Below, one piece after another: positions 3,884 to 31,142 of a stretch of DNA of 64,000 bases. The position numbers and the translations under genes are program-made. Source of the DNA: Myxococcota bacterium. Lineage in GTDB: Bacteria; Myxococcota_A; UBA9042; PHBI01; JACKFB01. The DNA is taken from NCBI GenBank assembly GCA_041389525.1, contig JAWKRR010000022.1, positions 19,130 through 83,129 on the forward strand, in the 5' to 3' direction. How positions within the stretch are numbered: position 1 is the stretch's first letter; each line of letters begins with the position of its first letter. The notes below the pieces were generated by a model. It had not been told where the DNA came from and made no database searches. It saw only the letters and a list, made by a program, of their open reading frames with translations.

Positions 3884-4990
3884 TTAGACTTCTTGGCGGC
3901 GGACGGACCAGATGAAGCTGTCGAACCAGAAGTGGGCGAGCGAGGTCATCAGCCAGAAGGCGACGAGCCAGGAGACCTGCATGGTGTCTAGGCGCAGCCA
4001 GGCGAAGGCGGCCGCGGTGCCTAGGACGAGGACGAAGGCTAGGAGGGCTCCGAAGGGGCGGCGGTCGAGGCTTAGCGAGCTTGTGACGTTCTTGCGCTCG
4101 CTGAACCAGACCAGGGCGACGTACATGGTGGCGTGGTAGAGGTTTCCGATGATGGCGCCGTCGAGGATGGAGAAGTAGGTGAGTGCCAGGATGTTCGCGG
4201 CGCCGGTGGAGGCGTAGAGGGCGAGTTTGGCGGGCGCGATGCGGTAGCCGCGGGTGCTGAGGCGTAGGTAGGACGCGACGTAGAAGAGGGTGTAGGCGCC
4301 GGCGAAGGCGATGAGGGGCCAGCGGAGGTGCGCGGCGTAGTTGGCGGCGACGTGGAGCCAGGCGAGGTTGGGGTCGAAGCCGGTGGCGGGGATGAACTCG
4401 GCGGGGCGCACGAAGGTCAGGGCGATGAGGTAGGGCAGCCACTCGAAGGTGAAGCACATGCCCATGTCGAGGCGGCGGCCGACGTGGGGGTCGTTGCCGC
4501 GCTTGCTGTCGTAGATGCGGCCGAAGCCGAAGGTCTGCATCACCGAGTGCCACTCGTCCCAGAGCACTGCGATGGGGGCGATGACGAAGAGGACCTCGCT
4601 GGAGAGTGCCAGGGCGAGCAGCAGCAGGGCCGGGGCGACCATGAGGCGGCGGCGGTAGCGGGTGTAGACGGCGGGGTTGAGGTGGCTGCGGACCACCGTG
4701 AGGTTGACGTGGCCGAAGGTGAAGATGGCGGCGACGAGGATGAGCCAGGTCGGGGTGGCGCCGGTGTAGGCGATGGAGCCGCCGGGGGCGCGGGGGGCGC
4801 CGAGGAGGGCGACCACGGCGAAGGCGATCATCGGGCAGGCGAGGAAGACCACGGGGTCGATGGCGCGGCCGATGATGTACCAGGGGCGGGCTGGTGCTGC
4901 CGCGGGGGCGGGCTCGGCGCGGGCTGGTGTGGCGCGGGCGGCGGCGGCGGTGGACACGCGGGCTCCGTCTGGCGGGGACGGCGCGAGCAT
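3884..4990 (-). CDS. polytopic membrane protein (368 aa), unknown function
   Basis: Long ORF with about 9 hydrophobic segments (e.g. 'WLILVAAIFTFGHVNLTVV', 'LAFVLVLGTAAAFAWL'). It lies 10 bp upstream of the 3160..3873 gene on the same strand and shares its many CTA codons (frequent 'tag' on the plus strand), suggesting a two-gene membrane operon of foreign origin. Confidence 0.55.
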   Translation of the reverse strand: MLAPSPPDGARVSTAAAARATPARAEPAPAAAPARPWYIIGRAIDPVVFLACPMIAFAVVALLGAPRAPGGSIAYTGATPTWLILVAAIFTFGHVNLTVVRSHLNPAVYTRYRRRLMVAPALLLLALALSSEVLFVIAPIAVLWDEWHSVMQTFGFGRIYDSKRGNDPHVGRRLDMGMCFTFEWLPYLIALTFVRPAEFIPATGFDPNLAWLHVAANYAAHLRWPLIAFAGAYTLFYVASYLRLSTRGYRIAPAKLALYASTGAANILALTYFSILDGAIIGNLYHATMYVALVWFSERKNVTSSLSLDRRPFGALLAFVLVLGTAAAFAWLRLDTMQVSWLVAFWLMTSLAHFWFDSFIWSVRRQEV

Positions 4991-5065
4991 AATCGAAGGC
5001 GGGGGCGAAGTGGATGGAGGATTTTCGGGCGGCGCGGGCGCGGCGGGCGGCGCGGCGTGGGCGGC

Positions 5066-5767
5066 CTACGAAGACCCTTTCTGGCGGCGCATGGCCAGCA
5101 GGCGCTGGATGAACTGCGGGGTGACGCCCAGGCGGCGGGCGGCCTCCTCGATGTCGCCGTCCGCGTCCGCGATGGCCTGGTCGATGTCGCCGGCGGCCGC
5201 GTCGGTGGCCATGGCCGTCGGCTTGTGGGCCCCGGCGCCGCGCACGCGCTCGGCCGCGCCCGCGTCGGCGTCGTCGGTGGTCCGCGACTGCATCTCGTAG
5301 ACCCAGCTCGCGCTGCCAATGGTGATCCGGTCGCCGTAGGCCAGCACGGCGCGGCGCACGGGCTGCCCGTTGACCAGGGTGCCGTTGGCGCTGCCGAGAT
5401 CCTCCAGCAGCAGGCCCTGCCCCGTCGGCGTCAGGCGGCAGTGCTCGCGCGAGGCCAGCGCTTCGGTCGTCTGGATGCGGTTGGACGGCGCCCGCCCGAT
5501 CGTGACGCTGCCGCCTTTGACGTGGAACTCGCGGCCCGCCACGTCGCCGCCGACGCCGATGAGCCAGTCGAGCTTGGACTCCTGGGAGCCAGAGAAAACC
5601 TCGTCAAAATCGAGGCCGGTGCTGCCCAGGGGGCGTGAGGCGGGGGCGGCGACTTGGGCGCGGCGCGCGGCCGGCCGGGGCGCGCCAGATCGCCGCAACC
5701 CGAACCAAATGCCCGCGGCGGCTGCGGCGGCGACCGCGATGATCGCCGCGATGACCAGCAGGTTCAC
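5066..5767 (-). CDS. FHA-domain protein with N-terminal transmembrane anchor
   Basis: N-terminal TM helix (LLVIAAIIAVAAAAAAGIWFGL). FHA core 'VTIGRAPSNRIQTTEALASREHCRLTPTGQGLLLEDLGSANGTLVNGQPV...GDRITIGS' (GR...S..H...N..NGT signature). The C-terminal 'AARRLGVTPQFIQRLL' is HTH-like. Confidence 0.75.
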   Translation of the reverse strand: MNLLVIAAIIAVAAAAAAGIWFGLRRSGAPRPAARRAQVAAPASRPLGSTGLDFDEVFSGSQESKLDWLIGVGGDVAGREFHVKGGSVTIGRAPSNRIQTTEALASREHCRLTPTGQGLLLEDLGSANGTLVNGQPVRRAVLAYGDRITIGSASWVYEMQSRTTDDADAGAAERVRGAGAHKPTAMATDAAAGDIDQAIADADGDIEEAARRLGVTPQFIQRLLAMRRQKGSS

Positions 5768-16614: not shown

Positions 16615-17301
16615 CTACGGGCGGCGGCGGGCCATCCACAGGAAGTGGTCGCCGCTGTCGTCGGGGGTCGGGCGGCCGGGTTCGGTGTGGGTGATGGCCT
16701 CGACCTCAAAGCCAGCGCGGGTCAGCGCGCCGGTGAACGCGTCGTCGGGGGCGGCTGACCAGACGCCGAGGACGCCGCCGTCGATGAGCGCGGCGTGGGC
16801 GGTCTGTAGGCCGTGGTCGGTGTAGAGCCAGGCGTTGTAGCTGCGCGTCAGGGCGCGCGGGCCGTTGTCGACGTCCAGCAGGATGGCGCTCCACGGGGCC
16901 GGCGGCGTGGCGATGAGGTCGACGACGTCGCCGACGTGGACCGACACGCGGGGGTCGCGCAGGGGGTGGCGCGAGGCGCGGCCGAGGAGATCGCGGTTCC
17001 AGCGCACGATGGCGGGGATGAGCTCGGCGACCGTGGTGGCCGCCTCGGGCCCGATGCGCCGAAGCACCGCGGCCAGGGTGAAGCCCATGCCCAGCCCGCC
17101 GACCAGCACCCGCGCGTCGTCGAGCCGCGCCAGCCGGTCGCACGCCAGGTCGGCCAGCGCGTCCTCGGAGCCGTGCGCGCGATTGCCCATCAGCTCGCGC
17201 CCGTTCATGTGGATGGCGTACTCGCGCCCGCGGTTCATCAGGAACATGGTCCCCTCCCCGTCCGGGACCTCCTCCTTGTCGATGAACTCCCACGCTCGCA
17301 T
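16615..17301 (-). CDS. spermidine-synthase-like / class I SAM-dependent methyltransferase-fold protein
   Basis: Start MRAWEF (ATG 17301). 'VLVGGLGMGFTLAAVL' is a Rossmann G-x-G-x-G element; 'ILLDVDNGP' resembles the aminopropyltransferase acidic loop. The Arg-rich ORF 16706..17641(-) is rejected. Confidence 0.55.
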   Translation of the reverse strand: MRAWEFIDKEEVPDGEGTMFLMNRGREYAIHMNGRELMGNRAHGSEDALADLACDRLARLDDARVLVGGLGMGFTLAAVLRRIGPEAATTVAELIPAIVRWNRDLLGRASRHPLRDPRVSVHVGDVVDLIATPPAPWSAILLDVDNGPRALTRSYNAWLYTDHGLQTAHAALIDGGVLGVWSAAPDDAFTGALTRAGFEVEAITHTEPGRPTPDDSGDHFLWMARRRP

Positions 17302-17432
17302 CGCGCCTCCCCGGCTCGGGTTCGCGTTCATGTAGCACAGGGGCGGGCCGGCTTGCAGATTCCCTCGGGTCGCGCAGAATCGCAGCTGTGGGCGTGGTAT
17401 TTCGGGGACGTTCACTCCAGAAGGAGCGCGCG

Positions 17433-18791
17433 ATGAGAGCTGCCGCCTCAACGGCCGTCCTGGCCCTTTGCATCGCGGCGACGGGCCTGGGTCTCGCCCC
17501 GGCGGCCCACGCCGGCAACGACGACTCGGTGCTGATCGGCGACGAGGCTGTCCTCAGCGGCGGCGCGGTCACGGCGACGGTCAAGACGGGTGCGGCGCTC
17601 TGGTACAACCCGGCCGGGCTGAGCCGCGTGTCCCGCGACACGGTGGACGTCAGCGGGACGGCCTACGCCCTGCGGCTGTACCGCGTGCCGCGCCTGGTCG
17701 AGCTCTACGGCGGCGAGAAGGCGGACGGGCGCATGAACGAGGTGCTGGTCATCCCGACCGCCCTCACCTATGTGCGCGCCTTCGGTAAGGCGAGGGTGGG
17801 GCTTGGCGTGTTCGTCGTGGACAGCGAGAACATGAAGCTGCGCTCGCACCTGGTGGCCTTCAAGCCGCAGCTCGGCCTGACCAACGAGTGGCTGCTGGCC
17901 ATCGAGGCCAAGTCCCAGCAGTACCGCGCGGTGCTTGGCGCGGCGTGGCGCCCGTCGGCGCGGCTCAGCGTCGGCTTCAGCTTCCAGGGTGTGTATCAAG
18001 CCAGCTCAGGGTCAGCGGTCTTCGCCGGCGGCTTCAACGACGGCACCGTCAACTCCACCTCGCCGGGCTTCGTGTCCTTCGCGACGCAGCTCTCCGAGAC
18101 GGGCATTGGGCTGGCGCTCTCCCTGGGCGTGCAGTGGGAGCCCGTCGACGACCTCTTCATCGGCGCCAGCGTGCAGTCGCCGGTGCTGCTCATCTACTCG
18201 TCGGCCAGCGAGTCCAGCAGCCTCGGAAACGCGTTCGTAAACCAGGGCATCGGCGTCTTCGACACCAGCGACACCACCAACTCCGACGCGACCCTGGACA
18301 TCGTGGTCCCGACGCGACTTCGCCTCGGCGTCGCCTACGAATACAAGGCGGTCAGCTTCTCCGTGGAGGCCGACATCCAGCACAAGCTGCGCAACGAGGC
18401 CTTCCAAGTGGACAGGAGATTCCTGTGGAATCTGCGCGCCGGCCTGCAGGGGCGCGTCAGCTCCACGATGACCCTGGGCGGCGGGTTTTTCACCGACCGC
18501 AGCCCCGAGCAGCCCGCGCGCACCCTGGGGGCGGCGGACGTGGACTTCTACGGGTTCTCGCTGGGCCTGTCCTACCTGAAAGACCGGCGCCTGGACTCGA
18601 CGACCGAGAAGCGGGACCGGCTGACCTTCGGGTCGACCTTCGGGCTGCGCTACGCCTACGGCAAGGGCGATTTCGGCGGGGCCGCGCTGAGCGACACCTT
18701 CGCCGACTTCAACGACCTCATCCGCGAGGGCCCGCGCCGGGCGACGATTCACGAGATCGCCCTCTACCTGGGGACGAGCTTCCTGTTCTGA
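17433..18791 (+). CDS. putative outer-membrane beta-barrel protein
   Basis: Signal peptide 'MRAAASTAVLALCIAATGLGLAPAAHA'. Alternating hydrophobic beta-strand pattern and a C-terminal '...YLGTSFLF' aromatic end typical of OMPs. Confidence 0.55.
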   Translation: MRAAASTAVLALCIAATGLGLAPAAHAGNDDSVLIGDEAVLSGGAVTATVKTGAALWYNPAGLSRVSRDTVDVSGTAYALRLYRVPRLVELYGGEKADGRMNEVLVIPTALTYVRAFGKARVGLGVFVVDSENMKLRSHLVAFKPQLGLTNEWLLAIEAKSQQYRAVLGAAWRPSARLSVGFSFQGVYQASSGSAVFAGGFNDGTVNSTSPGFVSFATQLSETGIGLALSLGVQWEPVDDLFIGASVQSPVLLIYSSASESSSLGNAFVNQGIGVFDTSDTTNSDATLDIVVPTRLRLGVAYEYKAVSFSVEADIQHKLRNEAFQVDRRFLWNLRAGLQGRVSSTMTLGGGFFTDRSPEQPARTLGAADVDFYGFSLGLSYLKDRRLDSTTEKRDRLTFGSTFGLRYAYGKGDFGGAALSDTFADFNDLIREGPRRATIHEIALYLGTSFLF

Positions 18792-18822
18792 GCGCGGGGC
18801 GGGCGGGCGCAGGGGGCTGCGC

Positions 18823-19953
18823 TCAGTCGTCGCCGGAGCCGCCCAGCTTCCCGCTCATCGCCTCGGCCTCAGCCTGCAAGCGCGCGGCCGCCTCGACCTT
18901 GGCTGCGTCGCCGCTGCGCGCCGCCTCGCCCAGCATCTTCCACGCCTGCCGACGAAGCTCGAGGTAGCGCAGCAGGTCCGCCTGGAGCGCGCGCTGCCGG
19001 TCCTGCGCCCGGCTGAGGTCCAGCGCCCGAAAGCGCGCCTCGGCGGCCGTCCAGGGCGAGATGACTTGGGCCTCCAGCGCGTCAGCGAACTCCGCGTCGG
19101 TGATGCGCCCAGCTTGAGCGTCCTCGATGAGCTCGCCGTAAGCCGCCACCACCGTCTTTTCGACAGACGCGAGCTGGTCTATCTCGCCCTGCAGGTCGGG
19201 GAGCTTGGGCAGGTTCAGGGTGGCGCCGTAGATCGCCGCGGCCGACGCGAGACCGACGCCCAGCGCCCGCAGCAGCCGCCGGTCCGGGCCGCCCGCGCGC
19301 AGGGTCGGCGCCAGCCCGAGGCCACACAGAAAGCCCGCCGCCAGCCCGCCCAGATGCGCGGCCATGTCGATGCCGGGCACGGCCATGCCGAAGGCGACGT
19401 TGTAGACCACGAAGAGCCCGGCGTTCTTGGCGATGCCGCTCACCGCCGCGCGCGGGATGATGCCGCGGCGCATGACCACGACGCCGAGCAGGCAGCCGAA
19501 GACGCCGAAGACCGCGCCCGACGCCCCAGCGCTTACGACGTAGGGGTTCCACCACGTGCTGGCCAGGCTCCCCGCGAGCCCGCTGGCCACGTACATCACC
19601 ACGAAGCTCGCGTTGCCGACGATGCGCTCGACCATGCGGCCCGCGTCCCACAGCACGTACATATTGAACGCGATGTGCACGACGCCGATGTGGATGAACA
19701 TCGCCGCCGCGAGGCGCCACCACTCGCCCGACGTCGTCAGCGGCGCGTAGTTGGCGCCCCACTGCAGCAGGTCGGGCACGGTCGGCGAGAAGAAGTGCAC
19801 GCCGCTGACCACCATGGTGACCCAGACCGCGAGGTTGGCCAGCACCAGCAGGGGCGTGACCCAAATCCGCGGAGTCATCCGGTGCAGCAGGAGCGCAAAC
19901 TCCATCTGGTCCCGCTCTTCCAGTAGCGCCGTCACTGCGTCGTCGTCAGCCAT
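18823..19953 (-). CDS. rhomboid-family intramembrane serine protease with a long C-terminal soluble extension
   Basis: Rhomboid motifs 'GASGAVFGVFG' (catalytic Ser) and 'AHLGGLAAG' (catalytic His) within 6 TM helices. About 150 aa of Ala/Glu/Arg-rich coiled-coil-like tail follows. Confidence 0.75.
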   Translation of the reverse strand: MADDDAVTALLEERDQMEFALLLHRMTPRIWVTPLLVLANLAVWVTMVVSGVHFFSPTVPDLLQWGANYAPLTTSGEWWRLAAAMFIHIGVVHIAFNMYVLWDAGRMVERIVGNASFVVMYVASGLAGSLASTWWNPYVVSAGASGAVFGVFGCLLGVVVMRRGIIPRAAVSGIAKNAGLFVVYNVAFGMAVPGIDMAAHLGGLAAGFLCGLGLAPTLRAGGPDRRLLRALGVGLASAAAIYGATLNLPKLPDLQGEIDQLASVEKTVVAAYGELIEDAQAGRITDAEFADALEAQVISPWTAAEARFRALDLSRAQDRQRALQADLLRYLELRRQAWKMLGEAARSGDAAKVEAAARLQAEAEAMSGKLGGSGDD

Positions 19954-20271
19954 GGCCGCATCATATCGGCGGGGGCGCGGTCGTCCACTGGGTTGGGCGT
20001 GTGCGACCGGATGTTGCGCCCTCTCCAGAGCCGTCCCCGGACGATCGGCTCGGGGTCTTCAGCGCGGTCCGATTGTTTCCGGCAGGTAACAAAACGGTTT
20101 ATTTTCGCGCCCTTTGTGACCGCGTCCGGCCCCCCATCGCGGCCTGGGAAAGGGCCAGTCATTCCGGGGGGAAATCGGGGGTGGCGCGGCGCCCGAGATC
20201 GCGTGTCAAGCGCCCCGACGAGCCCGTGATGCCCTTGCAAGACGGCGGCTCGAGGCGCAACGTAGCGGTCG

Positions 20272-23200
20272 ATGAGACTACTGATACAGCACCGTACTTC
20301 CTACATCTACCCGCGCCCCGCCAACCTCGGACCCCACGTAGTCCGCCTCCGCCCCGCGACCCACGCCCGCGCCCACATCGAGAGCTACAGCCTCACGGTT
20401 CCGGACGAAGCGCTGGTCCACTGGCAGCAGGACCCCCAGGCAAATCACGTCGCTCGGCTCACGTTCCGCGACGGAGTCCGCTTCGAGCGTTTCGACGTCG
20501 TGGTCGAGATTACGGCGGACATTCGGCCGGTGAACCCGTTTGACTTCTTTGTCGACGAGTACGCGACCGATCTGCCATTCGCCTACCCGGAAGAGCTGGC
20601 GCGCAGTCTGGCGGCATACCTCGAGACCACGAGCCCCGCTTACGAGGCGGGCCCGCTCTTCGAGGCGTTTGTGGCGGCACACCCGGGCCACGGCGGCACG
20701 GTGGCCTACGTGGTCGAGCTGGCCGGGAAAGTGGCGGCGAGCGTGCGCTATGTCATCCGCGAGGAGTCCGGCGTCTGGACCCCCGAGGAGACGCTGGCCC
20801 AGGGGCGCGGCTCGTGCCGTGACTCGGCCGTGTTGCTGGTCGCCGCCCTCCGACGCGCCGGCCTGGCGGCCCGATTCGCCAGTGGATACCTGGTACAATT
20901 GGCCGACGAGGGCATGATCCCCGACCAGCCGCGCGGCGTGGACCGCGACGTCGTCGACTTGCACGCCTGGGCCGAGGTGTATCTGCCGGGCGCCGGCTGG
21001 GTCGGCATCGACGGCACCAGCGGGCTGCTCTGCGGTGAAGGGCACATTCCGCTGGCCTGCACGCCCTCGCCGGGCCTCGCCGCCCCGCTGGAGGGCACCA
21101 GCGACGTGTTCGCCAGCGCGCTCGACTTCGCGATGATCGTCGGTCGGGTCGGCCACGAGGCCAGCCCGACCACCCCCTACACCGAGGCGACGTGGCAGCA
21201 GCTGCTTGCCCAAGCCGCGGCCGCCGACGAGCGCCTGGTCGAGGAGGGCCTGCACCTGACCCTGGGCGGCGAGCCGACCTTCAACAGCCGCGAGCACCCC
21301 GACGAGCCCGAGTGGGGCCCCGAGGCGCTGGGCGACACCAAGTGGGCGCTGGGGCTGACCCTGGCGGATTCGCTCAGGCGGCGCTTGGCTCCGGGCGGGC
21401 TTGTCTTTCAACGCCAAGGCAAGCACTACCCCGGCGAGTCCTTGCCGCGCTGGGCCCTGGACATCATCGCGCGCCGCAGCGGCGAGCCGATCTGGCGCGA
21501 GATGCCCGCGCCCGCCGCGCCGCCGAAGGCCGACAAGCACGCCGCCGCCAAAGCGGCCCCGGACGCCGCGCTGGCCAAGGACGCCGAGGCCTTCGCCCGA
21601 GACCTGGCCACCCGCCTTGGCTTCGCCGACTTCCTGCAGCCCGCCTACGAGGACCCCTGGCCCTTCTTGATGGCCGAGCAGAGCTTGCCGCCCGACGAGG
21701 ACGCCCTCGCGACCAACCTCCACGACCCCGAAGACCGCCGCCGCCTCGCCCGAATCCTCAATCGCGGCCTGGGTGAACCGGCCGGTTGGGTGCTGCCCTT
21801 CATCCGCATCAAAGACCGCTGGCACAGCTCGAAGTGGGCCTTCCGCCGCGGCCACATCTTCCTGCTGCAAGGCGACAGCCCCGTGGGCCTGCGCCTGCCG
21901 CTGGGCTCGCTGCCCGAGTGCCTGCCGGTGCCCTCGCCCGTCGAGCCCGCCATCGTGAAGAAGGACCCGCGCCTCGTCGACGAGCCGGAGCCCGATGAAA
22001 CGGACGCGGGCGACGAGGCCGATGACCCGCGCGAGGTCCGCACCGCGCTCTGCGTCGAGCCCCGCGACGGCGCCGTCCACGTCTTCATGCCGCCGCTCGC
22101 CAGCGCCGAAGAGTTCTTCACCGTGGTCGAGCTCATCCAGCAATCCCGCGACGCCACCGGCGTGGACCTCCGCCTCGGCGGCTACTCCCCGCCGTCGGGC
22201 CCCGACCTCTTCCGCTTCGCCGTAACTCCCGACCCCGGCGTGCTCGAGGTCAACCTCCCGCCGGTCGCGTCCATCGCCGAATACGACCCGCTGATCCACG
22301 CCGTCTTCGACTGCGCGCTCGCCTCGGGCCTGCACTCCGAAAAATACATGCTCGACGGCCGGCAGCAGGGCAGCGGCGGCGGCAACCACCTGACCATGGG
22401 CGGCCCGAAGCTCCTCGAGAGCCCGTTCTTGCTGCGCCCCGACCTGCTCGCCAGCCTCATCACGTTCACGCAGCACCACCCGTCGCTGTCCTACCTGTTC
22501 ACCGGCCTCTTCGTGGGCCCGACCTCTCAGGCCCCGCGCGTCGACGAGGCCCGCCACGACTCGCTCTACGAGCTCGAGCTCGCGCTGGAGCGCGCCCACG
22601 ACACCCTGGAAGACGACGAGCCGCCCGTCCCGTGGCTTGGCGACATGCTCTTCCGGAACCTGCTCATCGACGTCGCCGGCAACACGCACCGCGCCGAGAT
22701 CTCCATCGACAAGCTCTTCGATCCCGGCGGCGCCCACGGCCGCCAGGGCCTCGTCGAGCTCCGCGCCTACGAGATGCCGCCCCACCCGCGCATGGCGACG
22801 GCCCAAGCCGCCCTCGCCCGCACCCTCATCGCCGCCTTCTCGCGCACCCCCTACCGCGCGCCGCTGGTCCGCTGGGGCCAAGCCCTGCACGACCGCTTCC
22901 TGCTGCCCTACTACCTGTGGCGCGACTTCCAGGACGTCCTGGACTGGCTCGAAGCCGAGGGCGTGCCCCTGCCCGCCGACGCCTACCTGCCCTTCGTCGA
23001 CCTCCGCTGCCCCCTGGTCGGGCGGCTCCACGCCGGCGACGTCACCGTCGAGGTCCGCAACGCCCTGGAGCCCTGGCCCGTCCTGGGCGAGCAGACCACG
23101 GGCGCCGCCACCTCGCGCTACGTCGACAGCTCCATGGAGCGCGTCGAGCTGCGCGTCCAAGGCCTCACCCCCGAGCGCCACGCCATCGTCGTCGCCGGCC

Positions 23201-23595
23201 TCGAGGTCCCACTGCGCCCCACCGAGACCGCCGGCGAGCTGGTCGGCGGCGTGCGTTTCCGCGCCTGGGCCCCGCCCTACTCCCTCCAGCCCCACCTGGG
23301 CATCCATCACCCCCTCCGGATCGACGTCGTCGACCGCTGGGCCGACCGCAGCCTGGGCGGCGCCGCCTACCACGTCTGGCACCCCGAGGGCCGCGCCTTC
23401 GACGGCCAGCCCCTGACCCGCTTCGAGGCCGCCGCCCGCCGCGCCCAGCGCTTCACCCAAGAGGGCCCCCTGCCCTGGCCCGTCCGCCCGACCCCGGTCG
23501 CGCCTCACCCGGACACCCCCTACACCCTCGATCTCCGCCGCTTCCAAGTCGACCACCCCATGCCCACCGCGCCGCCCGCCGACGAAGCGGAGTAG
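20272..23595 (+). CDS. large transglutaminase-family protein (Bact_transglu_N, transglutaminase-like core, DUF2126-type C-terminal region), 1107 aa
   Basis: N-terminus '[28 protein letters not shown]' is the Bact_transglu_N signature. Transglutaminase core '[30 protein letters not shown]...[23 protein letters not shown]' (Cys, His, Asp). The long antisense ORF 20278..23652(-) is an artefact. Confidence 0.85.
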
Positions 23596-23654: not shown

Positions 23655-25106
23655 GTGACCCCCACGCTCTTCGAGAACTACACGCCCGAACCCGACGCCT
23701 TCGACGAACTCTTCGGTCGCGTCGGGATGCCCCGAGACCCCTTCGCGCCGCTGCTCACCGAGGTCGAGCGCGCCATCGACAACGACTTCGAGCGCCTCCA
23801 ACGCCTCGCAGACCGCGTGCTGCTGCAGTCCGGCGTGACCTTCTCCGTCTACGCGGACCAAGCCGGCACCGAGAAGATCTTCCCCTTCGATCTGCTGCCC
23901 CGCGTCATCAACGCCACCGAGTGGGGCCACCTCGACCGCGGCCTGCGCCAGCGCGTCCAAGCGCTGCAGCTCTTCCTCGACGACGTCTACGGCGACCAGC
24001 GCATCCTGGCCGAGGGCATCATCCCCAAAGAGCTGGTCCTCGGCGCCAGCCAGTACACGCCGCTGGTCTGCGGTATCAAGCCCGCCCGCGGCGTGCGCAT
24101 CCACATCGGCGGCATCGACATGGTGCGCGACGGCGCCGGGACCTGGCTGGTCCTCGAAGACAACGTCCGCACGCCCTCCGGCGTCTCCTACGTGATGGAG
24201 AATCGCCTCGTCACCAAGCGCGTCTTCGCCGCCGCGTTCCGCGAGGCCCAGGTCCAGCGCGTCGACTTCTACCCGTCGAAGCTGGCCGAGAGCCTGCGCT
24301 CCGTCGCGCCCTGCGACCCCTCCGAGGCCACCGTCGTCGTCCTGACGCCGGGCATGCACAACTCCGCCTACTTCGAGCACAGCTTCCTGGCCCGCACCAT
24401 GGGCCTGCCGCTGACCGAGCCGGGCGACCTCTACGTCGAAAACGACCACGTCTGGCTCAAGATGACCCAGGGCCCAAGGCGCGTGGACGTCATCTACCGG
24501 CGCATCGACGACGCCTTCATCGACCCGGCCGCCTTCCGCCCCGACACGCTGCTCGGCGTGCGCGGCCTCATCGGCGCCTGGGCGAAGGGCAACGTCGCCC
24601 TGGCCAACGCGCCCGGCAACGGCGTCGCCGACGACAAGGCGATCTACCCGTACGTGCCCGATATGGTCAGGTTTTACCTGTCTGAAGAGCCGATCCTCGA
24701 GCAGGTGCCGACCTGGCTCTGCGACCGCGAGGACGAGCGCAAGTACGTGCTCGAACACCTCGACGAGATGGTGGTCAAGTCGGTGGACGAGGCCGGTGGC
24801 TACGGCATGTTGATGGGCCCCAGCGCGTCGAAGGCCGAGCGCGACGCCTTCGCCGAGCGCATCAAGGCGACGCCGCGCAAGTACATCGCCCAGCATCGCC
24901 TGGAGCTGTCGACCTGCCCGACGTGGATCCCCGAGACCAAGCGCTTCGAGCCGCGCCGCGTCGACCTGCGGCCCTACATCCTGACGGGCGCCGACGGCCC
25001 CTGGGTGCTGCCGGGCGGGCTGACGCGCGTGGCGCTGCCGAAGGGCTCCTACGTGGTGAACTCGAGCCAGGGCGGCGGCTCCAAGGACACATGGGTGCTG
25101 CGGTGA
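23655..25106 (+). CDS. circularly permuted ATP-grasp protein (DUF404/DUF407 type)
   Basis: GTG 23655. '[17 protein letters not shown]...QSGVTFSVY...[11 protein letters not shown]...[21 protein letters not shown]' is characteristic of the CP ATP-grasp family encoded next to alpha-E proteins. The frame is shared with the Arg-rich upstream part of ORF 22632..25106, which is not coding. Confidence 0.85.
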
Positions 25107-25167: not shown

Positions 25168-26145
25168 GTGATTTCACGCGTCGCAGACCACTGCTTCTGG
25201 CTCGGGCGCTATCTCGAGCGAACGGAGAGCACCTCGCGGATGCTCTTCGTGACCGCAAACCTGGCCCTGGACACGGAGATCGCGTCCAGCGACGTGTGGC
25301 GGCCTGTCATCATCGTGTCGGGCGAAGAGGAGCGCTTCCTCGAGCGCTTCGACGAAGAGCGCGCGGGCGACGCCGAGACCGTGCAGGACTACCTGACCTG
25401 GGACCCGCAATGCGGCGTCTCGCTGCTGGCGTCCATCGACGCGGCGCGCTGGAACGCCCGGGCGATGCGCGAGGTCATCAGCCTGGAGGTGTGGGAGACC
25501 GTCAACGAGCTGCACCTGTGGCTGCGTACCGACGCCGCGCGCGGCCTCTGGACCGACGGGCGCTACGATTTCTACCGGCACATCAACCGCCAGGTGCAGC
25601 TCGTGCTGGGGCAGATCCACGGGACCATGCTGCACAACCACGCCATGGACTTCATCTGGATGGGCGTGCTGCTGGAGCGCACCGGGCAGACCGCGCGCAC
25701 CCTGGACGTCCACCACCACGTGCTGACCCAGCTCGAGGCGCGCGCCGCCGACCCGGGCGTGGGCATGGTGCTGTGGCCGTCGCTGCTGCGGGCGTGCTCG
25801 GCACTCGAGCCCTTCATGAAGAGCAGCGGCGGGGTCATCAGCGGGCGCCGCGTGGCCGATTTCCTGCTGCTGGAGCGGGAGTTTCCGCGTTCGGTTCGCT
25901 TCTGCGTGCGCCGCTCGTGGGAGTGCTTGAGCCGCATCCGGCCGCCGACCGCCGCGAACCTGCCCGGGGGCGAAACCCTCGAGCGGGTGCGGGCTCTGGA
26001 CGCTTGGATGCAGGGGATTTCGACGGAAGGGCTTTCCCACGACCGATTCCACGATATCCTCACGCACGTCGTCGACGAGACCGCCTCCATCTGCGCGGGC
26101 CTCGGAAACGAGGTCCTGGGTCACGGCGACGCGCCCCAGGCCTAG
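25168..26145 (+). CDS. alpha-E domain protein (DUF403)
   Basis: 'MISRVADHCFWLGRYLERTESTSRML' is the canonical alpha-E N-terminus. 62-bp gap from the ATP-grasp gene. Confidence 0.85.
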   Translation: MISRVADHCFWLGRYLERTESTSRMLFVTANLALDTEIASSDVWRPVIIVSGEEERFLERFDEERAGDAETVQDYLTWDPQCGVSLLASIDAARWNARAMREVISLEVWETVNELHLWLRTDAARGLWTDGRYDFYRHINRQVQLVLGQIHGTMLHNHAMDFIWMGVLLERTGQTARTLDVHHHVLTQLEARAADPGVGMVLWPSLLRACSALEPFMKSSGGVISGRRVADFLLLEREFPRSVRFCVRRSWECLSRIRPPTAANLPGGETLERVRALDAWMQGISTEGLSHDRFHDILTHVVDETASICAGLGNEVLGHGDAPQA

Positions 26146-26155
26146 CGCCCGGGCC

Positions 26156-27913
26156 TTGCCGCCTACCGCCGTCGCGCCCCGTCCGGAGACCGTCTTGCCC
26201 AATATGCTCGCGATGTCCTTCGAGGGCGTGCTCGCCCCGTCTTTTGAACTGCGCGGGCTGCGCACCGGCCCCCTCCCGGACGGCTGGGGCGTCGGCTTCT
26301 ACGGTGGAAAAGAGCCAGCCGCCACCGTGCTAAAAGAGCACGCGCCGAGCCCCGGAGGCATGCGCTCGGAGCTCATCAAGTCCTGGGATCACCTGTCGTC
26401 ATCGACCTTCCTGATGCACATCCGGCGCGCGCGCTGGGGAAGCATCAGCGACGCCAACACGCAGCCCTTCGTGCGGACCTGGGGCGGGCGCGACTGGATG
26501 TTCGCCCACGCGGGCTCGCTGGACACGGTGCCGGCCATCAGCGGCCCGTCGCTCTTCGAGCCGGTCGGCAGCACCGACAGCGAGCTGGTCTTCTGCATCC
26601 TGATGAACCGCATCGCCGAGCGCGGCTGGCGGTCTTTGGGCGAGGTCGACATCGACGAGACGCTGGCGCTGCTGCGGAACATGGACGACTACGGCAGCTT
26701 CTCGGTGGTGCTCTGCGACGGCACGGACCTGCTGGCGTACACCGACTGCCAGGGGCAGGCGCCGCTGTATCTGTGGGAGCGCCGGCCGCCCTACAACAGC
26801 CTGACCTTCGGCGACGTGGACCTGAAGGTGGACCTCTTTAGCCGAGGTATCACCAGCCGAAACGGCATCGTGCTGAGCTCCGAGCTGCTCGAGCAGGACG
26901 GCCCGCCGGCGAAGTGGCAGCAGATCCCGTCCGGCGAGCTGCTCATCGCGCGCCAGGGCACGGTGCGGCTGCGCACGGGCAGCCAGCACATCGCGCCGCG
27001 GCTGCACGTCTACTCCGCACCCGCACCGCCGGGTGGCGTCGAGCCCAAGACCTTCCGCGTCCGCCACAGCAGCGTCTACACCTACGAGAAGGCGGTGGAG
27101 CGCAGCGACCACCTGCTGCGGCTGACCCCCATCGAGGACGCGCTGCAGCGTGTGAACTCGCACAGCATCCAGGTCTCGGTCGACGGTCGGGCCCGCGACT
27201 TCGAGGACGTCTTCGGAAATCGCTGCCGCCGCCTGCTCATCGAGACGCCCTTCACCGAGATGAGCATCGTCGCCGAGAGCATCGTCGAGGTGCGCGACAC
27301 CGACCCCTTCCACTACCGGCCGCTGCGCGCGCGGACCCGCATCCCGCTGGTCTGGATGCCGTGGCAGCGCCACATGCTGGCGCCCTACATGCTGCCGCCG
27401 GAGCTGCCCGAGTCGCAGCTAGGCACCCTGACCGACTACGCGATGAACTTCGTCGAGCGAAACGACTACGACCTGGTCCAGACCCTGCTCGACATGAACC
27501 TGACCATCTTCAACGAGTACAAGTACGAGCAGGGCTCGACGACCCTGGCGACGACGGCCTTCGAGACCTACGTCGACCGCCAGGGCGTGTGCCAGGACTT
27601 CGCCAACCTGCTCATCGCGATGTCGCGGCTGCTGGGCGTGCCGGCCCGCTACGCCGCCGGCTACATCTACACGGGGCCCAAGGCGGTGAACCAGGTGCAG
27701 TCGGAGGCCTCGCACGCGTGGGTGCAGTGCTACCTGCCCGAGCTTGGCTGGAAGGGGCTGGACCCGACGAACGGCCTGGTCACCCAGACCGACCACATCC
27801 GCGTGGCGGTCGGCCGCAACTACGTCGACGCCACGCCGACGGGCGGCACCATCTACGTCGGTGGGCTGGGCGAGACCCTGGTGGTCGACGTCCAGGTCGA
27901 GCCCATCGCGTAG
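26156..27913 (+). CDS. fusion protein: YafJ-type class II glutamine-amidotransferase-like (Ntn) domain plus C-terminal transglutaminase-like cysteine-protease domain
   Basis: The N-terminal domain aligns with E. coli YafJ ('DGWGVGFY' vs DGWGITFY; 'NTQPF' vs NTHPF; 'GRDWMFAHAGSL' vs GRNWTYAHNGQL; 'PVGSTDSELVFCIL' vs PVGETDSEKAFCWL). The C-terminus 'GVCQDFANLLIAMSRLLGVPARYAAGYIY...SHAWVQCYLPELGWKGLDPTNG' is a Bact_transglu/TGase core. The start is ATG 26156 or 26204; 11-bp gap from the alpha-E gene. Confidence 0.8.
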   Translation: MPPTAVAPRPETVLPNMLAMSFEGVLAPSFELRGLRTGPLPDGWGVGFYGGKEPAATVLKEHAPSPGGMRSELIKSWDHLSSSTFLMHIRRARWGSISDANTQPFVRTWGGRDWMFAHAGSLDTVPAISGPSLFEPVGSTDSELVFCILMNRIAERGWRSLGEVDIDETLALLRNMDDYGSFSVVLCDGTDLLAYTDCQGQAPLYLWERRPPYNSLTFGDVDLKVDLFSRGITSRNGIVLSSELLEQDGPPAKWQQIPSGELLIARQGTVRLRTGSQHIAPRLHVYSAPAPPGGVEPKTFRVRHSSVYTYEKAVERSDHLLRLTPIEDALQRVNSHSIQVSVDGRARDFEDVFGNRCRRLLIETPFTEMSIVAESIVEVRDTDPFHYRPLRARTRIPLVWMPWQRHMLAPYMLPPELPESQLGTLTDYAMNFVERNDYDLVQTLLDMNLTIFNEYKYEQGSTTLATTAFETYVDRQGVCQDFANLLIAMSRLLGVPARYAAGYIYTGPKAVNQVQSEASHAWVQCYLPELGWKGLDPTNGLVTQTDHIRVAVGRNYVDATPTGGTIYVGGLGETLVVDVQVEPIA

Positions 27914-27951: not shown

Positions 27952-28317
27952 ATGCTGCAGAAAGTCGCCTTCACCCTGGTCCCGATCAAGGACGCCGCCC
28001 GCGCCCGGGCCTTCTACGAGGACACCCTCGGCCTGACCCGCGGCAGCCACCACGAAGACGGCACGTGGACCGAGTACGACCTGCCCGGAGGCGGCTGTCT
28101 GGCGCTCTTCCGCTCCGACGACCTGCAGCCGAGCAACACCGCCGGCAGCACCGTCGCCTTCGAGGTCGACGACCTCGACGCGCTCAACGCGACACTCAAA
28201 TCCCAAGGCGTCACCTACGCCCAAGACATGATCCACTCCCCGGTGTGCCGGATGTCGGTCATCGTCGACTCCGAGGGCAACGGCCTGCTCCTCCACGAGC
28301 TCAAGGCGAAGCCCTAG
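27952..28317 (+). CDS. VOC (glyoxalase/bleomycin-resistance fold) family protein
   Basis: 121 aa. 'VAFTLVPIKDAARARAFYEDTLGL' and 'TVAFEVDDLDALNATLKSQGV' form beta-alpha-beta-beta-beta VOC modules. It is the in-frame tail of ORF 26914..28317, whose upstream part is Arg/Ala noise. Confidence 0.65.
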   Translation: MLQKVAFTLVPIKDAARARAFYEDTLGLTRGSHHEDGTWTEYDLPGGGCLALFRSDDLQPSNTAGSTVAFEVDDLDALNATLKSQGVTYAQDMIHSPVCRMSVIVDSEGNGLLLHELKAKP

Positions 28318-28383: not shown

Positions 28384-29223
28384 TTACTTGCCGTCGAGGG
28401 CGGCGAGGAGTCGCTTGGCGTAGGCGTCGCGGTCGACCGCAAAATTGTCTTTGCGGTCGGGGTTTTCGACGACGTAGATGGCCTTGTCGACCAGCTTCTT
28501 CTGCTTGGCCTGCAGGGCCTTCATGTCCTTGAGGGAGAAGAGCTGGTCCTTGCTGCCCACGATGAGGGTGATGCCGGTGAGCTGCTTGCCGGGGGCGCCG
28601 TCGAGGGCCGTCTGGGGCTCGTAACGCTTCTCGTAGCCGGCGAAGGGGACCTCCATGGGCGTGTCCCAGCTCGAGAAGCGCCGCTCGAGATCCTCCATGG
28701 AGAGAAATGGCGTGTCGGCGATGATGCGCGTCAGCTCGGGGCGGCCGTAGCCTATGCCGAGGGCGAGGCCGGCGCCGATTCCCCAGCCGTAGACCGCGAA
28801 GGACTTGCCGTGGGTCTTGCGGCAGTAGTCGAGCATCGTCGCGTAGTCGTCCTGGAAGTGCGGGTAGATGAACATGTTGTTGTCGATCTCGAACTCGCTG
28901 CTCTCGCCGAAGCCGCGGTAGTCGAAGGCCACCACGTTGAACTGCCCGGTGAGGGCGTCGACGCGGCGCAGGTAGTCGCCCATGTTGCCCTCGCCGTTGT
29001 GGCTGATGAGCACGAGCTTCGTGGTCTTCGTCTTGGCCGGGAAGGTCCAGACGTTGAGCGTGGCGGTGCCGTCGTTCGTGGGGACCTTGGCCTCGGTGAA
29101 GGCCATGTTGAACTTGTCCGGGCGCTGCTTGTAGGTGCGGCTTGGGTTCAGGGCCATCGCGTCGGCGGCGACGAGGGTGGCGAGGGCCGCGAGGGCGGCG
29201 GTCAGGGCGGTTTTGCGCAGCAT
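28384..29223 (-). CDS. secreted alpha/beta-hydrolase-fold-like protein (nucleophile motif atypical)
   Basis: Signal peptide 'MLRKTALTAALAALATLVAADAMA'. 'LVLISHNGEGNMGDY', 'VVAFDYRGFGES' and 'FAVYGWGIGAGLALG' resemble the oxyanion/nucleophile-elbow region of prolyl-oligopeptidase/DLH-like hydrolases, but Gly sits where the catalytic Ser is expected. AT-poorer, Lys-rich composition. Confidence 0.45.
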   Translation of the reverse strand: MLRKTALTAALAALATLVAADAMALNPSRTYKQRPDKFNMAFTEAKVPTNDGTATLNVWTFPAKTKTTKLVLISHNGEGNMGDYLRRVDALTGQFNVVAFDYRGFGESSEFEIDNNMFIYPHFQDDYATMLDYCRKTHGKSFAVYGWGIGAGLALGIGYGRPELTRIIADTPFLSMEDLERRFSSWDTPMEVPFAGYEKRYEPQTALDGAPGKQLTGITLIVGSKDQLFSLKDMKALQAKQKKLVDKAIYVVENPDRKDNFAVDRDAYAKRLLAALDGK

Positions 29224-29510
29224 GGGCGGGGCTCCTGGAGGGTAGGGCGCCGCCCCAGCCCCGAGGCCGCGGCGAGGATGACGCCGAGTGTGTATAATGG
29301 GGGGAGTTTACTGGCTGGGCGGTCGGTGTCGAGCACACGGGACGCGCAGCGCCGGCGGCGTAGATTCAGCAATCGCGCGTTTGGTGCGTTGTTTCGGTTG
29401 CCGGGACTGGGTTGTGCCCGTAGATGGATGGAGTTCTGGGGATCGCAGCCCAGCTCGACGCCGCCCGGTCATCCGCTCCCGACCTGTGTTTAGACGATGA
29501 GGACCTCTCG

Positions 29511-30116
29511 ATGGCGCGACCCAAATCATTCGATGTCGACGAGGTGCTGGAGCAGGCCGCGACGCTGTTCTGGAACCAGGGCTACGAGGCGACCTCGATG
29601 CGCGACCTCGAGAACGAGCTCGGCGTGGGGCGGCAGAGCCTCTACGACACGTTCGGCGACAAGCGCTCGCTCTTTCTCAAGGCGCTGGAGCGCTACGCGA
29701 AGGATGGCGAGAGCTTCTGGGCTGGCATGGAGGGCCCCGACGCCGGCTTGGCGGAGCTGCGGACCTGGTTTGACGCGCTGGTGGACCACGCGGGCCGCGA
29801 CGGGAGGCGGGCGGGCTGCTTTGTCGTCAACACGGTGGCGGAGCTTGGCGACCAAGACGAGGGCGCGAACGCCATCTGCCGCAGGAGCCGCGAGACCCTG
29901 GCGAAGCGATTCCGGAACGTGCTGGAGAACGCCGTGCGCCGCGACGAGCTGCCCAGCCCGGCCGACCTGGGCGCGGCCGCCGATTTCCTGGTCGCCCAGA
30001 CCTACGGCGTGCTGCTGATGGGCAAGAACGGCGCCGCCAGAGACCGCCTCCGCGCGGCCACCGCCCAGGCGCTGCGAGCCGTAGGGGTCGGGTCCGGACT
30101 TAAGACTTGCTCTTGA
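29511..30116 (+). CDS. TetR-family transcriptional regulator
   Basis: N-terminal HTH 'VLEQAATLFWNQGYEATSMRDLENELGVGRQSLYDTFGDKRSLF' is the TetR_N signature. ATG 29511. Confidence 0.8.
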   Translation: MARPKSFDVDEVLEQAATLFWNQGYEATSMRDLENELGVGRQSLYDTFGDKRSLFLKALERYAKDGESFWAGMEGPDAGLAELRTWFDALVDHAGRDGRRAGCFVVNTVAELGDQDEGANAICRRSRETLAKRFRNVLENAVRRDELPSPADLGAAADFLVAQTYGVLLMGKNGAARDRLRAATAQALRAVGVGSGLKTCS

Positions 30117-30149
30117 CGAGGGCGGGGTTGGGGGCGAGGCTCCGCGGCC

Positions 30150-31142
30150 ATGGCACGTACAGCACGCATTCAGGCTCCTGGGCTTTGGCATCACGTGATG
30201 AACCGCGGGGTTGGGCGCGGGGATGTGTTCGTCGACGACGACGACCGGCACGGGTTCTTCGAGCTGCTTGAGGACGTCGCCGAGCGGTGGGGGCTGCGGA
30301 CGCACGCGTTCTGCCTGATGGGCAACCACTTCCACCTGCTCGTCGAGGACACGGAGGGAAACCTCGCGCGGGGGATGCGGCACGTGCTCGGCGTCTACAC
30401 GCAGCGCTTCAACCGGCGACACGGGCGCGACGGGTCGCTCTTTCGCGGGCGGTTTCGGTCGCGGCTGGTGCAGCACGAGGAGTACCTCGCGGAGCTTGTG
30501 CGCTACATCCATATGAACCCGGTGCAGGCGGGGCTCGCCGAGCACGCGGGCGACTACCCGTGGTCCAGCCACGGGCACTACATGCGCGGCACGGGCCCCG
30601 CGTGGCTCGCGACGGGGGAGGTCATGGGCCGGTTCGGTGGCGACCCCGAGCGGCTCGACACCTTCGTGCACGCGCGGGTGCCCGACGAGGTCAAGGCGGC
30701 GCTGGACCCGGCGGTCAACCCGAAGCTGCTGGGCGACGACGCGTTCGAGGCGGCTTGGGCCGACCGGCTGCGCGGGCGGCCAGGCTCGGGCCCGGCGGCG
30801 GCTGACGCGCCGGGCCGCCTTCGTAGCGCCGCGCGCGAGGTGATCGCCGCGGTCGCCGCGCACTTCCACGTCAAGCCGGCCGCCATCAAGCGGGCGGTCC
30901 GCGGGCAGCCCAACCCCGCCCGCCACGTCGCGCTGCTGGTCTGCTTGGACTACACGCAGATGTCGAGTCGCGACGTCGCCCGGGCCCTGGCGATGCACCC
31001 CACCAGCGTCGCCTCGCTGGCGCATCGCTACCGCAAGACGATGGCTCAGGACCCCGAGTTCCGGGCGGACGTGCAGGCCGTGCTCGCCGCGCTGCGCGCC
31101 GCCCCCCAGCCTGCGTCGACTCGCGGCGCAGCCAAGAGCTGA
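30150..31142 (+). mobile_element. IS200/IS605-like Y1 HUH transposase of the RAYT type (COG1943) with a C-terminal DnaA-C-like HTH domain
   Basis: 'HHVMNRGVGRGDVF...LRTHAFCLMGNHFHLLVE' carries the HuH motif. 'ELVRYIHMNPVQAGL' and 'YPWSSHGHY' (catalytic Tyr region) are typical of RAYT/IS200-like TnpA. The C-terminal 'HVALLVCLDYTQMSSRDVARALAMHPTSVASLAHR' resembles DnaA domain IV. REP-like copies are scattered in the window (see repeats). Confidence 0.7.

Follow-up and report, generated by a model that had tools for sequence, protein, structure and literature searches.

An invariant N-terminal proline aligned with the catalytic cysteine in a YafJ-like amidotransferase domain fused to a transglutaminase-like module in Myxococcota

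What can a class II amidotransferase domain still do when the residue expected to be its nucleophile is a proline? The question is raised by a gene in a 64,000-nucleotide stretch of a Myxococcota contig (JAWKRR010000022.1, positions 19,130 to 83,129; assembly GCA_041389525.1), referred to here as the window, with a G+C content of 71%. The gene encodes a YafJ-like class II amidotransferase domain of the N-terminal nucleophile (Ntn) fold, fused to a transglutaminase-like module (Table 1). The first-pass annotation of the window had noticed that the domain appears to lack its N-terminal Cys. Judging from the comparisons described below, the feature is a conserved oddity, an invariant N-terminal Pro together with a lost oxyanion Asn, within a known family (GATase_4) and a known type of operon.

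Start codon and nucleophile position

The longest open reading frame (ORF) over the site covers 26156..27913 on the + strand and gives 585 amino acids from a TTG codon. The first-pass annotation had considered 26156 and 26204 as candidate starts; both are unlikely, and the true start is most likely the TTG at 26195, to which the homologues and a Shine-Dalgarno-like GGAGA both point. The predicted N-terminus is formylmethionine (fMet)-Pro-Asn-Met-Leu-Ala-Met-Ser-Phe-Glu-Gly; nearly all homologues in the collection open with 'MPNLLAMSFEG', and the three nearest loci (L001-L003) also start at TTG, with GGAG 4-7 nucleotides ahead of it. The genomic comparison set consisted of the top 80 related loci, and the N-terminal motif was located in 79 of them. 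A start codon lies immediately 5' of the invariant Pro in all 79 (ATG in 73, TTG in 3 and GTG in 3) and opens in every case a fusion ORF of 570-700 amino acids, one of the loci breaking off ahead of its stop codon; many of the loci have a stop in the same frame 0-7 codons upstream of the start position. Codon counts at the six positions upstream of the start are essentially random, and conservation at the protein level sets in sharply at the start. Starts at 26156, 26204 and 26213 are rejected in view of the N-termini of the homologues, of this sharp boundary and of the position of the Shine-Dalgarno sequence. The nearest relatives are uncultured Myxococcales genomes, with 84-89% identity for the fusion protein, and among the 80 loci are also one from a Thermoanaerobaculia metagenome-assembled genome (MAG; L033) and several from MAGs, such as L004 and L064, that bear no phylum-level name.

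The Pro codon that follows the start is CCG in 39 of the 79 loci, CCC in 38, CCT in 1 and CCA in 1, and Asn3 is encoded by AAC or AAT. Residue conservation was read from 58 non-redundant full-length orthologues, about 50-60% identical, all of which carry Pro2; with four synonymous codons, 79/79 loci and 58/58 orthologues, the Pro is not there by chance. No Cys codon occurs in frame from 26081 to 26281; numbered from 26195, the protein has its first Cys at residue 134. The absence of an N-terminal Cys nucleophile is thus confirmed, an invariant Pro standing at its position. The first-pass annotation had also left room for an alternative start or processing site; another start does exist, the TTG at 26195, but it exposes Pro rather than Cys, Ser or Thr and restores no nucleophile.

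The placement of the Pro depends on the register of the first strand, for which several alignments agree. The Pfam profile GATase_4 (PF13230) matches residues 15-280 of the 585-amino-acid ORF (E 6e-64; 216 bits, with the cut-off at 23) over profile positions 2-263 of 272, that is, nearly its full length, and the domain runs to about 26995 instead of ending at 26900 as first annotated. Proteins starting with Met-Cys or Met-Ser match this profile from position 1, and the Pro of the window falls on profile position 2. The structure 1TE5 of the Protein Data Bank (PDB), the Pseudomonas YafJ-like protein PA1307, is matched with E 3e-27 by the single sequence and end to end with E 1e-52 by a profile of the clade, which sets 'mpnllams' on 'MCELLGMS' and 'faHaGsl' on 'FAHNGQL'; MAFFT alignment with Cys-bearing relatives likewise lays M-P-N-L-L-A-M-S over M-C-E-L-L-G-L-S. 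The first-pass annotation, which set 'MCELLGMS' against '...NMLAMSFEG', had the right register: 'MCELLGMS' falls on '(L)PNMLAMS', with Cys2 matching the Pro codon. A single-sequence phmmer alignment gave a different register, 'LAMSFEGVL' on 'IVFSFTGLM' of 1TE5, in which the first strand is missing; it is overruled by the profile, the MAFFT alignment and the Pfam coordinates.

An AF2 model of the domain, built from a 31-sequence alignment (predicted local distance difference test 87, predicted template modelling score 0.86), has residues 3-13 as strand 1, with residues 1-2 just ahead of it as in Ntn enzymes. Foldseek searches with the model return 1TE5 (E 5e-21, template modelling scores 0.75/0.83), then EgtC, GFAT, PurF and GlmS, and the model together with these matches gives the four-layer alpha-beta-beta-alpha Ntn fold. 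The YafJ-type Ntn amidotransferase homology that the first-pass annotation had claimed for the N-terminal ~250 amino acids is in this way borne out by Pfam, the 1TE5 profile and Foldseek.

By these alignments, Pro2 occupies the place of the catalytic Cys2 of PA1307. Class II amidotransferases have Cys after the initiator Met or a propeptide, and here the residue is Pro, invariant in the clade; Ntn hydrolases have Ser, Thr or Cys as the first mature residue, and here the predicted mature N-terminus is Pro1. Where the nucleophile should be, the alignments show none of Cys, Ser or Thr, and no upstream start supplies one; the outcome that would have overturned the first-pass annotation was thus looked for and did not appear. 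On this sequence evidence, Ntn catalysis by a Cys, Ser or Thr nucleophile is excluded in the Pro clade. Three other residues were considered and set aside. Ser8 is nearly invariant among the orthologues and is equally conserved in the Cys-bearing enzymes ('MCELLGMS'). The Cys of 'DLRCL' (residue 21, 26255-26257), a candidate substitute nucleophile, is kept in 54/58 Pro-clade proteins, but the window protein and those of L001-L003, its nearest relatives, share a Gly at this place with canonical YafJ. Cys134 is not specific to the clade, as its 'FC' motif is also conserved in Cys-bearing relatives.

Pocket residues and the fused module

The rest of the pocket was read from the same 58 orthologues. 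Invariant in all of them are Pro2, His75, Arg77, Ala79, Gly82, Ala87-Asn-Thr-Gln-Pro-Phe92, His105, Gly107, Asp128 and Glu130. Judged by the motifs, Arg77 is the equivalent of Arg73 of PurF/GlmS, which binds the alpha-carboxylate of glutamine, and Asp128 is the counterpart of Asp127 of PurF and Asp123 of GlmS, which binds the alpha-amino group; both residues of this glutamine-backbone pair lie in line with the family motifs and never vary. Positions 106-107 likewise match the Asn-Gly of the oxyanion hole (Asn101 in PurF, Asn98 in GlmS). There the family motif 'HNG' reads 'HAG' in the window, and only the Gly is invariant: position 106 is Ser in 29 orthologues, Ala in 27, Gly in 2 and Asn in none. 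The most frequent residue reaches 94% in the N-terminal 11 residues, against 70% in the rest of the domain, and 45 columns are invariant within the first 260 residues. No part of the domain is better conserved than this N-terminal segment and the pocket motifs, and the pocket is under strong purifying selection.

The C-terminal half belongs, by profile and by its Cys-His-Asp triad, to the transglutaminase-like cysteine peptidase superfamily. All 58 orthologues carry GVCQDF, SHAW and DPTN without change, and with them the triad C466/H507/D523, and the fusion of the amidotransferase-like domain to the transglutaminase-like module is found in 80/80 related loci.

In its comparison with known proteins, the domain shares with YafJ/PA1307 (1TE5) the fold, the order of the motifs and 30% identity, with HxRxA, NT[HQ]PF, H-x-G and G-x-TDSE all in place. 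It differs from that protein in having Pro2 for Cys2 and 'HAG' for 'HNG', and in being fused and encoded with ATP-grasp and Alpha-E genes. EgtC (4ZFJ/4ZFK/4ZFL), a gamma-glutamyl amidohydrolase of the ergothioneine pathway and the best characterised small stand-alone member, has the same Ntn fold (Foldseek E ~1e-12) and aligns at R-x-A-T-x-G and H-x-G; its structures include, by the titles of the PDB entries, complexes with glutamine and with the natural substrate. However, EgtC has Cys2 and HNG, its identity to the window domain is 20-22%, and the NCBIfam model EgtC (TIGR03442) gives the window protein 52.9 bits where 218.65 would be required, so that it is not an EgtC.

Operon context and relatives

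The fusion gene closes an operon of genes for a transglutaminase-DUF2126 protein, a circularly permuted ATP-grasp protein and Alpha-E. Conservation of this arrangement was followed by tblastn with the window proteins against the 80 loci. The ATP-grasp gene is present in 64 of them, mostly in the order seen in the window, and the Alpha-E gene in 66, mostly directly upstream of the fusion gene, several of the remaining loci being incomplete. The DUF2126-gene query matched 67 of the 80, many of these matches being its transglutaminase-like N-terminus cross-matching the fusion gene only; the full-length DUF2126 gene is therefore present in fewer than 67 loci, some of which are incomplete. With co-directional genes and an arrangement kept in most of the 80 loci, the locus has the form of an ATP-grasp / Alpha-E / transglutaminase peptide-ligase operon, a type that was reportedly defined by Iyer et al. 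2009; a literature search on DUF2126 returned nothing relevant.

Operons of this type in Proteobacteria and Cyanobacteria, known as Anbu operons, combine ATP-grasp, Alpha-E and transglutaminase-like genes with an Ntn-fold protein, Anbu (PMC6376114, PMC5666114). Anbu is a separate protein of the proteasome-beta type with Thr1, encoded after the transglutaminase gene, whereas the window has an amidotransferase-type Ntn domain with a predicted Pro1 fused ahead of the transglutaminase-like module. No Anbu gene adjoins the fusion gene; the genes downstream are for glyoxalase-like, alpha/beta-hydrolase and TetR-family proteins. Anbu is highly expressed under nitrogen starvation and had no activity in vitro (PMC6376114). 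A homologous operon of B. cenocepacia, the cluster I35_5080-83, takes part in the response to nitrogen limitation in dependence on NtrC and sigma-54 (PMC5491218).

Related loci do not keep the glyoxalase-like, hydrolase and TetR genes beside the fusion gene, and the first two ORFs stand beside it in no related locus, including the 84%-identical L001; we take the operon to end at 27913 because these downstream ORFs are not kept in relatives. Farther out, the ORF at 30117-31142 (+), which the TetR-family gene adjoins, carries both a Y1 transposase domain of the IS200-like kind and a DnaA C-terminal helix-turn-helix domain. Upstream, genes for a FadL/TodX-like outer-membrane protein and a rhomboid protease (17286-20058) are syntenic with L001:1-1968 at 73-85% identity. 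In Anaeromyxobacter-type loci (L006, L007, L010, L013 and others; ~4200-5500), an additional gene, absent from the window, lies between the DUF2126 and ATP-grasp genes and resembles roughly the C-terminal 450 amino acids of DUF2126 with 37-41% identity.

Table 1. Features of the fusion gene, its operon and the adjoining genes (positions in the window)
Feature	Position	Strand	Evidence or remark
Whole gene, 572-amino-acid fusion GATase_4-like (Pro form) + Bact_transglu_N + Transglut_core	26195..27913	+	Pfam, homologue starts
Shine-Dalgarno-like GGAGA, about 5-6 nucleotides before the TTG start	26185..26189	+	sequence inspection
Probable true start codon TTG, read as fMet	26195..26197	+	homologous loci, Shine-Dalgarno spacing
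Pro2 codon CCC, at the Ntn nucleophile Cys position of YafJ/PA1307	26198..26200	+	profile, MAFFT and Pfam alignments
YafJ-like class II amidotransferase (Ntn-fold) domain without nucleophile	26195..26995	+	Pfam GATase_4, AF2, Foldseek
Arg77 codon in 'HIRRA'	26423..26425	+	invariant 58/58, motif alignment
Ala106 codon in 'HAG', oxyanion-hole Asn position of 'HNG'	26510..26512	+	aligned to FAHNGQL of 1TE5, SHNG of EgtC
Asp128 codon in 'GSTDSE'	26576..26578	+	invariant 58/58, motif alignment
Bact_transglu_N (PF08379), residues 300-378 of the 585-amino-acid ORF	27053..27289	+	Pfam E 1e-19
Transglut_core (PF01841), residues 442-537 of the 585-amino-acid ORF	27479..27766	+	Pfam E 5e-19
Cys466-His507-Asp523 triad codons	27590-27592, 27713-27715, 27761-27763	+	intact
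Bact_transglu_N + Transglut_core + DUF2126 (putative amidoligase), first operon gene, 1109-amino-acid open frame	20266..23595	+	Pfam DUF2126 E 6e-301; start approximate
Circularly permuted ATP-grasp amidoligase	about 23700..25106	+	CP_ATPgrasp_2 E 2e-161; start approximate
Alpha-E, immediately upstream of the fusion gene	25168..26145	+	PF04168 E 7e-73
Glyoxalase/VOC-like ORF, 51 nucleotides past the fusion gene	27964-28317	+	
Alpha/beta-hydrolase ORF, convergent with the glyoxalase/VOC-like ORF	28384-29223	-	
TetR-family gene	29424-30116		adjoins the 30117-31142 ORF

A scan of 1.84 billion representative proteins gave 1378 matches at E <= 1e-3, among which three groups can be told apart: stand-alone proteins that have HNG and open with M-C-E-L-L, the Pro clade, and long Ser/Thr-type proteins. 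The last group forms a sister clade that starts M-[S/T]-x-L-L-x-x-S-F-D, mostly keeps HNG and is 29-38% identical to the window domain. All 10 of the long Ser/Thr-type proteins tested have GATase_4, Bact_transglu_N and Transglut_core by Pfam, and thus the three-domain architecture of the window protein (e.g. P0132, P0138, P0160). The operon context was read for one member, P0138 (Met-Thr, locus L083), which also lies in a DUF2126 / ATP-grasp / Alpha-E operon, its ATG overlapping the stop codon of Alpha-E. Neighbour joining with 100 bootstraps supports the Pro clade at 99%, the Ser/Thr fusion clade at 98% and the two together against the Cys forms at 77%. None of the relatives examined is a Cys-bearing protein with the GATase_4-transglutaminase fusion, and the closest Cys-bearing relative examined is encoded by a gene that stands alone, with unrelated surroundings. 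The comparison with Cys-retaining orthologues proposed by the first-pass annotation thus had an unexpected outcome: among the fusion proteins seen here none has Cys, and those of the sister clade have Ser or Thr.

From their sequences, the sister-clade proteins look like working Ser/Thr-Ntn hydrolases, and their sharing of the fusion and the operon, with Ser or Thr in place and HNG mostly kept, suggests that a working Ntn hydrolase was probably the ancestral partner, from which the Pro clade would have lost two catalytic elements together. A single base change turns Ser (TCN) or Thr (ACN) into Pro (CCN). Eroded sites occur in the sister clade as well (P0175 with HAG, P0189 with HSG, P0205 without the Arg). 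Some Ser/Thr-type fusions, P0143 (L085:136-2070), P0148, P0156 and P0194, have 20-27 additional N-terminal residues with a conserved junction, '..E-H-x-x' followed by 'T-R-[LM]..', and the Thr of L085 is preceded by CTC, no start codon; the extension suggests an autoprocessed propeptide that would expose Thr1, as in classical Ntn hydrolases. Outside both fusion clades, P0256 (L086:5001-5885, L087:1459-2343) is a GATase_4 protein without a fusion partner, encoded among archaeal-looking genes (TrmB, HypA, PadR), with 'M-P-A-I-F...' at the aligned N-terminus and 'HSG' for 'HNG', apparently a second, independent case of Pro with loss of the oxyanion Asn.

Binding pocket or catalyst

On balance, we think it probable that the Pro-clade domain is a catalytically dead pocket that still binds Gln, Glu or a gamma-glutamyl-type ligand and serves the fused peptidase. 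Among the options put forward by the first-pass annotation, that of an inactive binding module is thus the favoured one, because the oxyanion Asn has been lost as well while the pair that binds the backbone of glutamine, Arg and Asp, is retained. The obligatory fusion to an intact triad and the conserved operon argue for the same reading, as do the action of a characterised relative, EgtC, on a gamma-glutamyl amide and the part of homologous operons in the response to nitrogen limitation. The pocket would recognise the product of the two amidoligases of the operon and present it to the fused Cys-His-Asp peptidase/isopeptidase domain or, in an alternative role, could gate that domain according to the level of Gln or Glu. 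Removal of the Met would leave Pro1 as the mature N-terminus, with its amine lining the pocket. Class II amidotransferase domains without Cys1 that survive as non-glutaminase modules have a precedent in the N-terminal domains of beta-lactam synthetase and carbapenam synthetase, although these are of the AsnB-like subfamily, have another partner domain and lack a conserved N-terminal Pro, and a literature search on beta-lactam synthetase with Cys loss returned nothing relevant.

Some observations weigh against a pocket of this kind. Pro2 is absolutely invariant, through four synonymous codons, and position 2 never drifts among small residues in 58 non-redundant sequences of ~50% identity, a drift that mere ligand binding might allow. 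In addition, the identity of the ligand is extrapolated from distant relatives of 20-30% identity.

The invariant Pro counts in turn for a non-canonical Ntn-fold enzyme in which the secondary amine of Pro1 would be the catalytic group (general base, nucleophile or Schiff-base former), acting on a substrate provided by the ligases of the operon; we regard this as possible, if unlikely. The start lies exactly one codon upstream of the Pro in 79/79 loci, preserving a free N-terminus as in true Ntn enzymes, and the N-terminal strand is the most conserved segment of the domain. Met-Pro is a good substrate of methionine aminopeptidase, and the apparently independent P0256 pairs Met-Pro with loss of the Asn. 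A catalytic N-terminal Pro is found in the tautomerase superfamily (4-OT/MIF) and in the Fpg/Nei glycosylases. The likeness to these is limited to the Met-Pro start, with a Pro1 expected to be exposed in a conserved pocket by Met removal; the tautomerase superfamily has a beta-alpha-beta fold and Fpg its own N-terminal domain, whereas the modelled fold of the window domain is the amidotransferase-type Ntn fold. In a literature search on N-terminal proline in Ntn hydrolases, we found no precedent for catalysis by Pro in the Ntn fold, and an invariant N-terminal Pro in an amidotransferase-type Ntn fold, sister to a Ser/Thr clade, is absent from the literature searched, which did not include the operon-defining Iyer et al. 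2009. The oxyanion position also varies between Ser, Ala and Gly, which suggests that constraint was relaxed and not redirected; the N-terminus, buried in the Ntn sandwich, may be conserved for structure alone; and a one-base change from Ser or Thr to Pro is a typical inactivating hit. The non-canonical enzyme considered by the first-pass annotation is kept alive by the absolute conservation of the Pro and of the exact N-terminus, but the loss of the oxyanion Asn favours an inactive module. That the Myxococcota clade represents a new catalytic type in the Ntn fold, with the Pro1 amine acting on a gamma-glutamyl-type ligase product, seems to us rather unlikely, and from the sequences compared here the Pro form is most probably a pseudo-enzyme instead of new chemistry.

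A decaying relic, in which the domain would only give the transglutaminase-like part structural support or a means of oligomerisation and the pocket would be out of use, is quite improbable. It would account for the loss of two catalytic residues and for the erosion of sites in the sister clade (P0175, P0189, P0205), but every substrate-binding motif of the family (H75, R77, A79, G82, ANTQPF, H105, G107, D128, E130) is invariant among orthologues of ~50% identity, and a pure scaffold would not keep its pocket so selectively.

We give hardly any credit to a different start or processing event that would supply a Cys, Ser or Thr, be it the ATG at 26213 (Met-Ser-Phe-Glu-Gly), an upstream start or autoproteolysis: some gene callers do begin homologues at 'MSFEG', Ser8 is nearly invariant and some sister-clade members may use a propeptide, but Pro-Asn-Leu-Leu-Ala is conserved with synonymous codon variation and conservation is gone just upstream of it, Ser8 cannot be taken as the nucleophile when Cys-bearing enzymes conserve it equally, translation from Met7 would cost the AF2 model half of its first strand, the sole in-frame upstream Cys lies inside the Alpha-E coding region, and stops precede the start by 0-7 codons in many loci.

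With a dead binding pocket as the preferred reading, the public name 'class II glutamine amidotransferase' is probably wrong as a statement of activity. The one orthologous slot, with Ser or Thr in one clade, an invariant Pro in the other and Cys in the stand-alone relatives, offers a natural experiment on the change or loss of a catalytic residue; should Pro1 be catalytic after all, a single family would, in its Cys, Ser/Thr and Pro forms, document how the nucleophile was switched. Operons with ATP-grasp, Alpha-E and transglutaminase genes, the partners of the 'ancestral proteasome' Anbu, are widespread, and nitrogen limitation induces them. In the Myxococcota and the sister lineage, the Ntn partner is a domain of the glutamine/gamma-glutamyl type, which supplies concrete candidate ligands and suggests that the chemical currency of these operons is a gamma-glutamyl or glutamine-like moiety.

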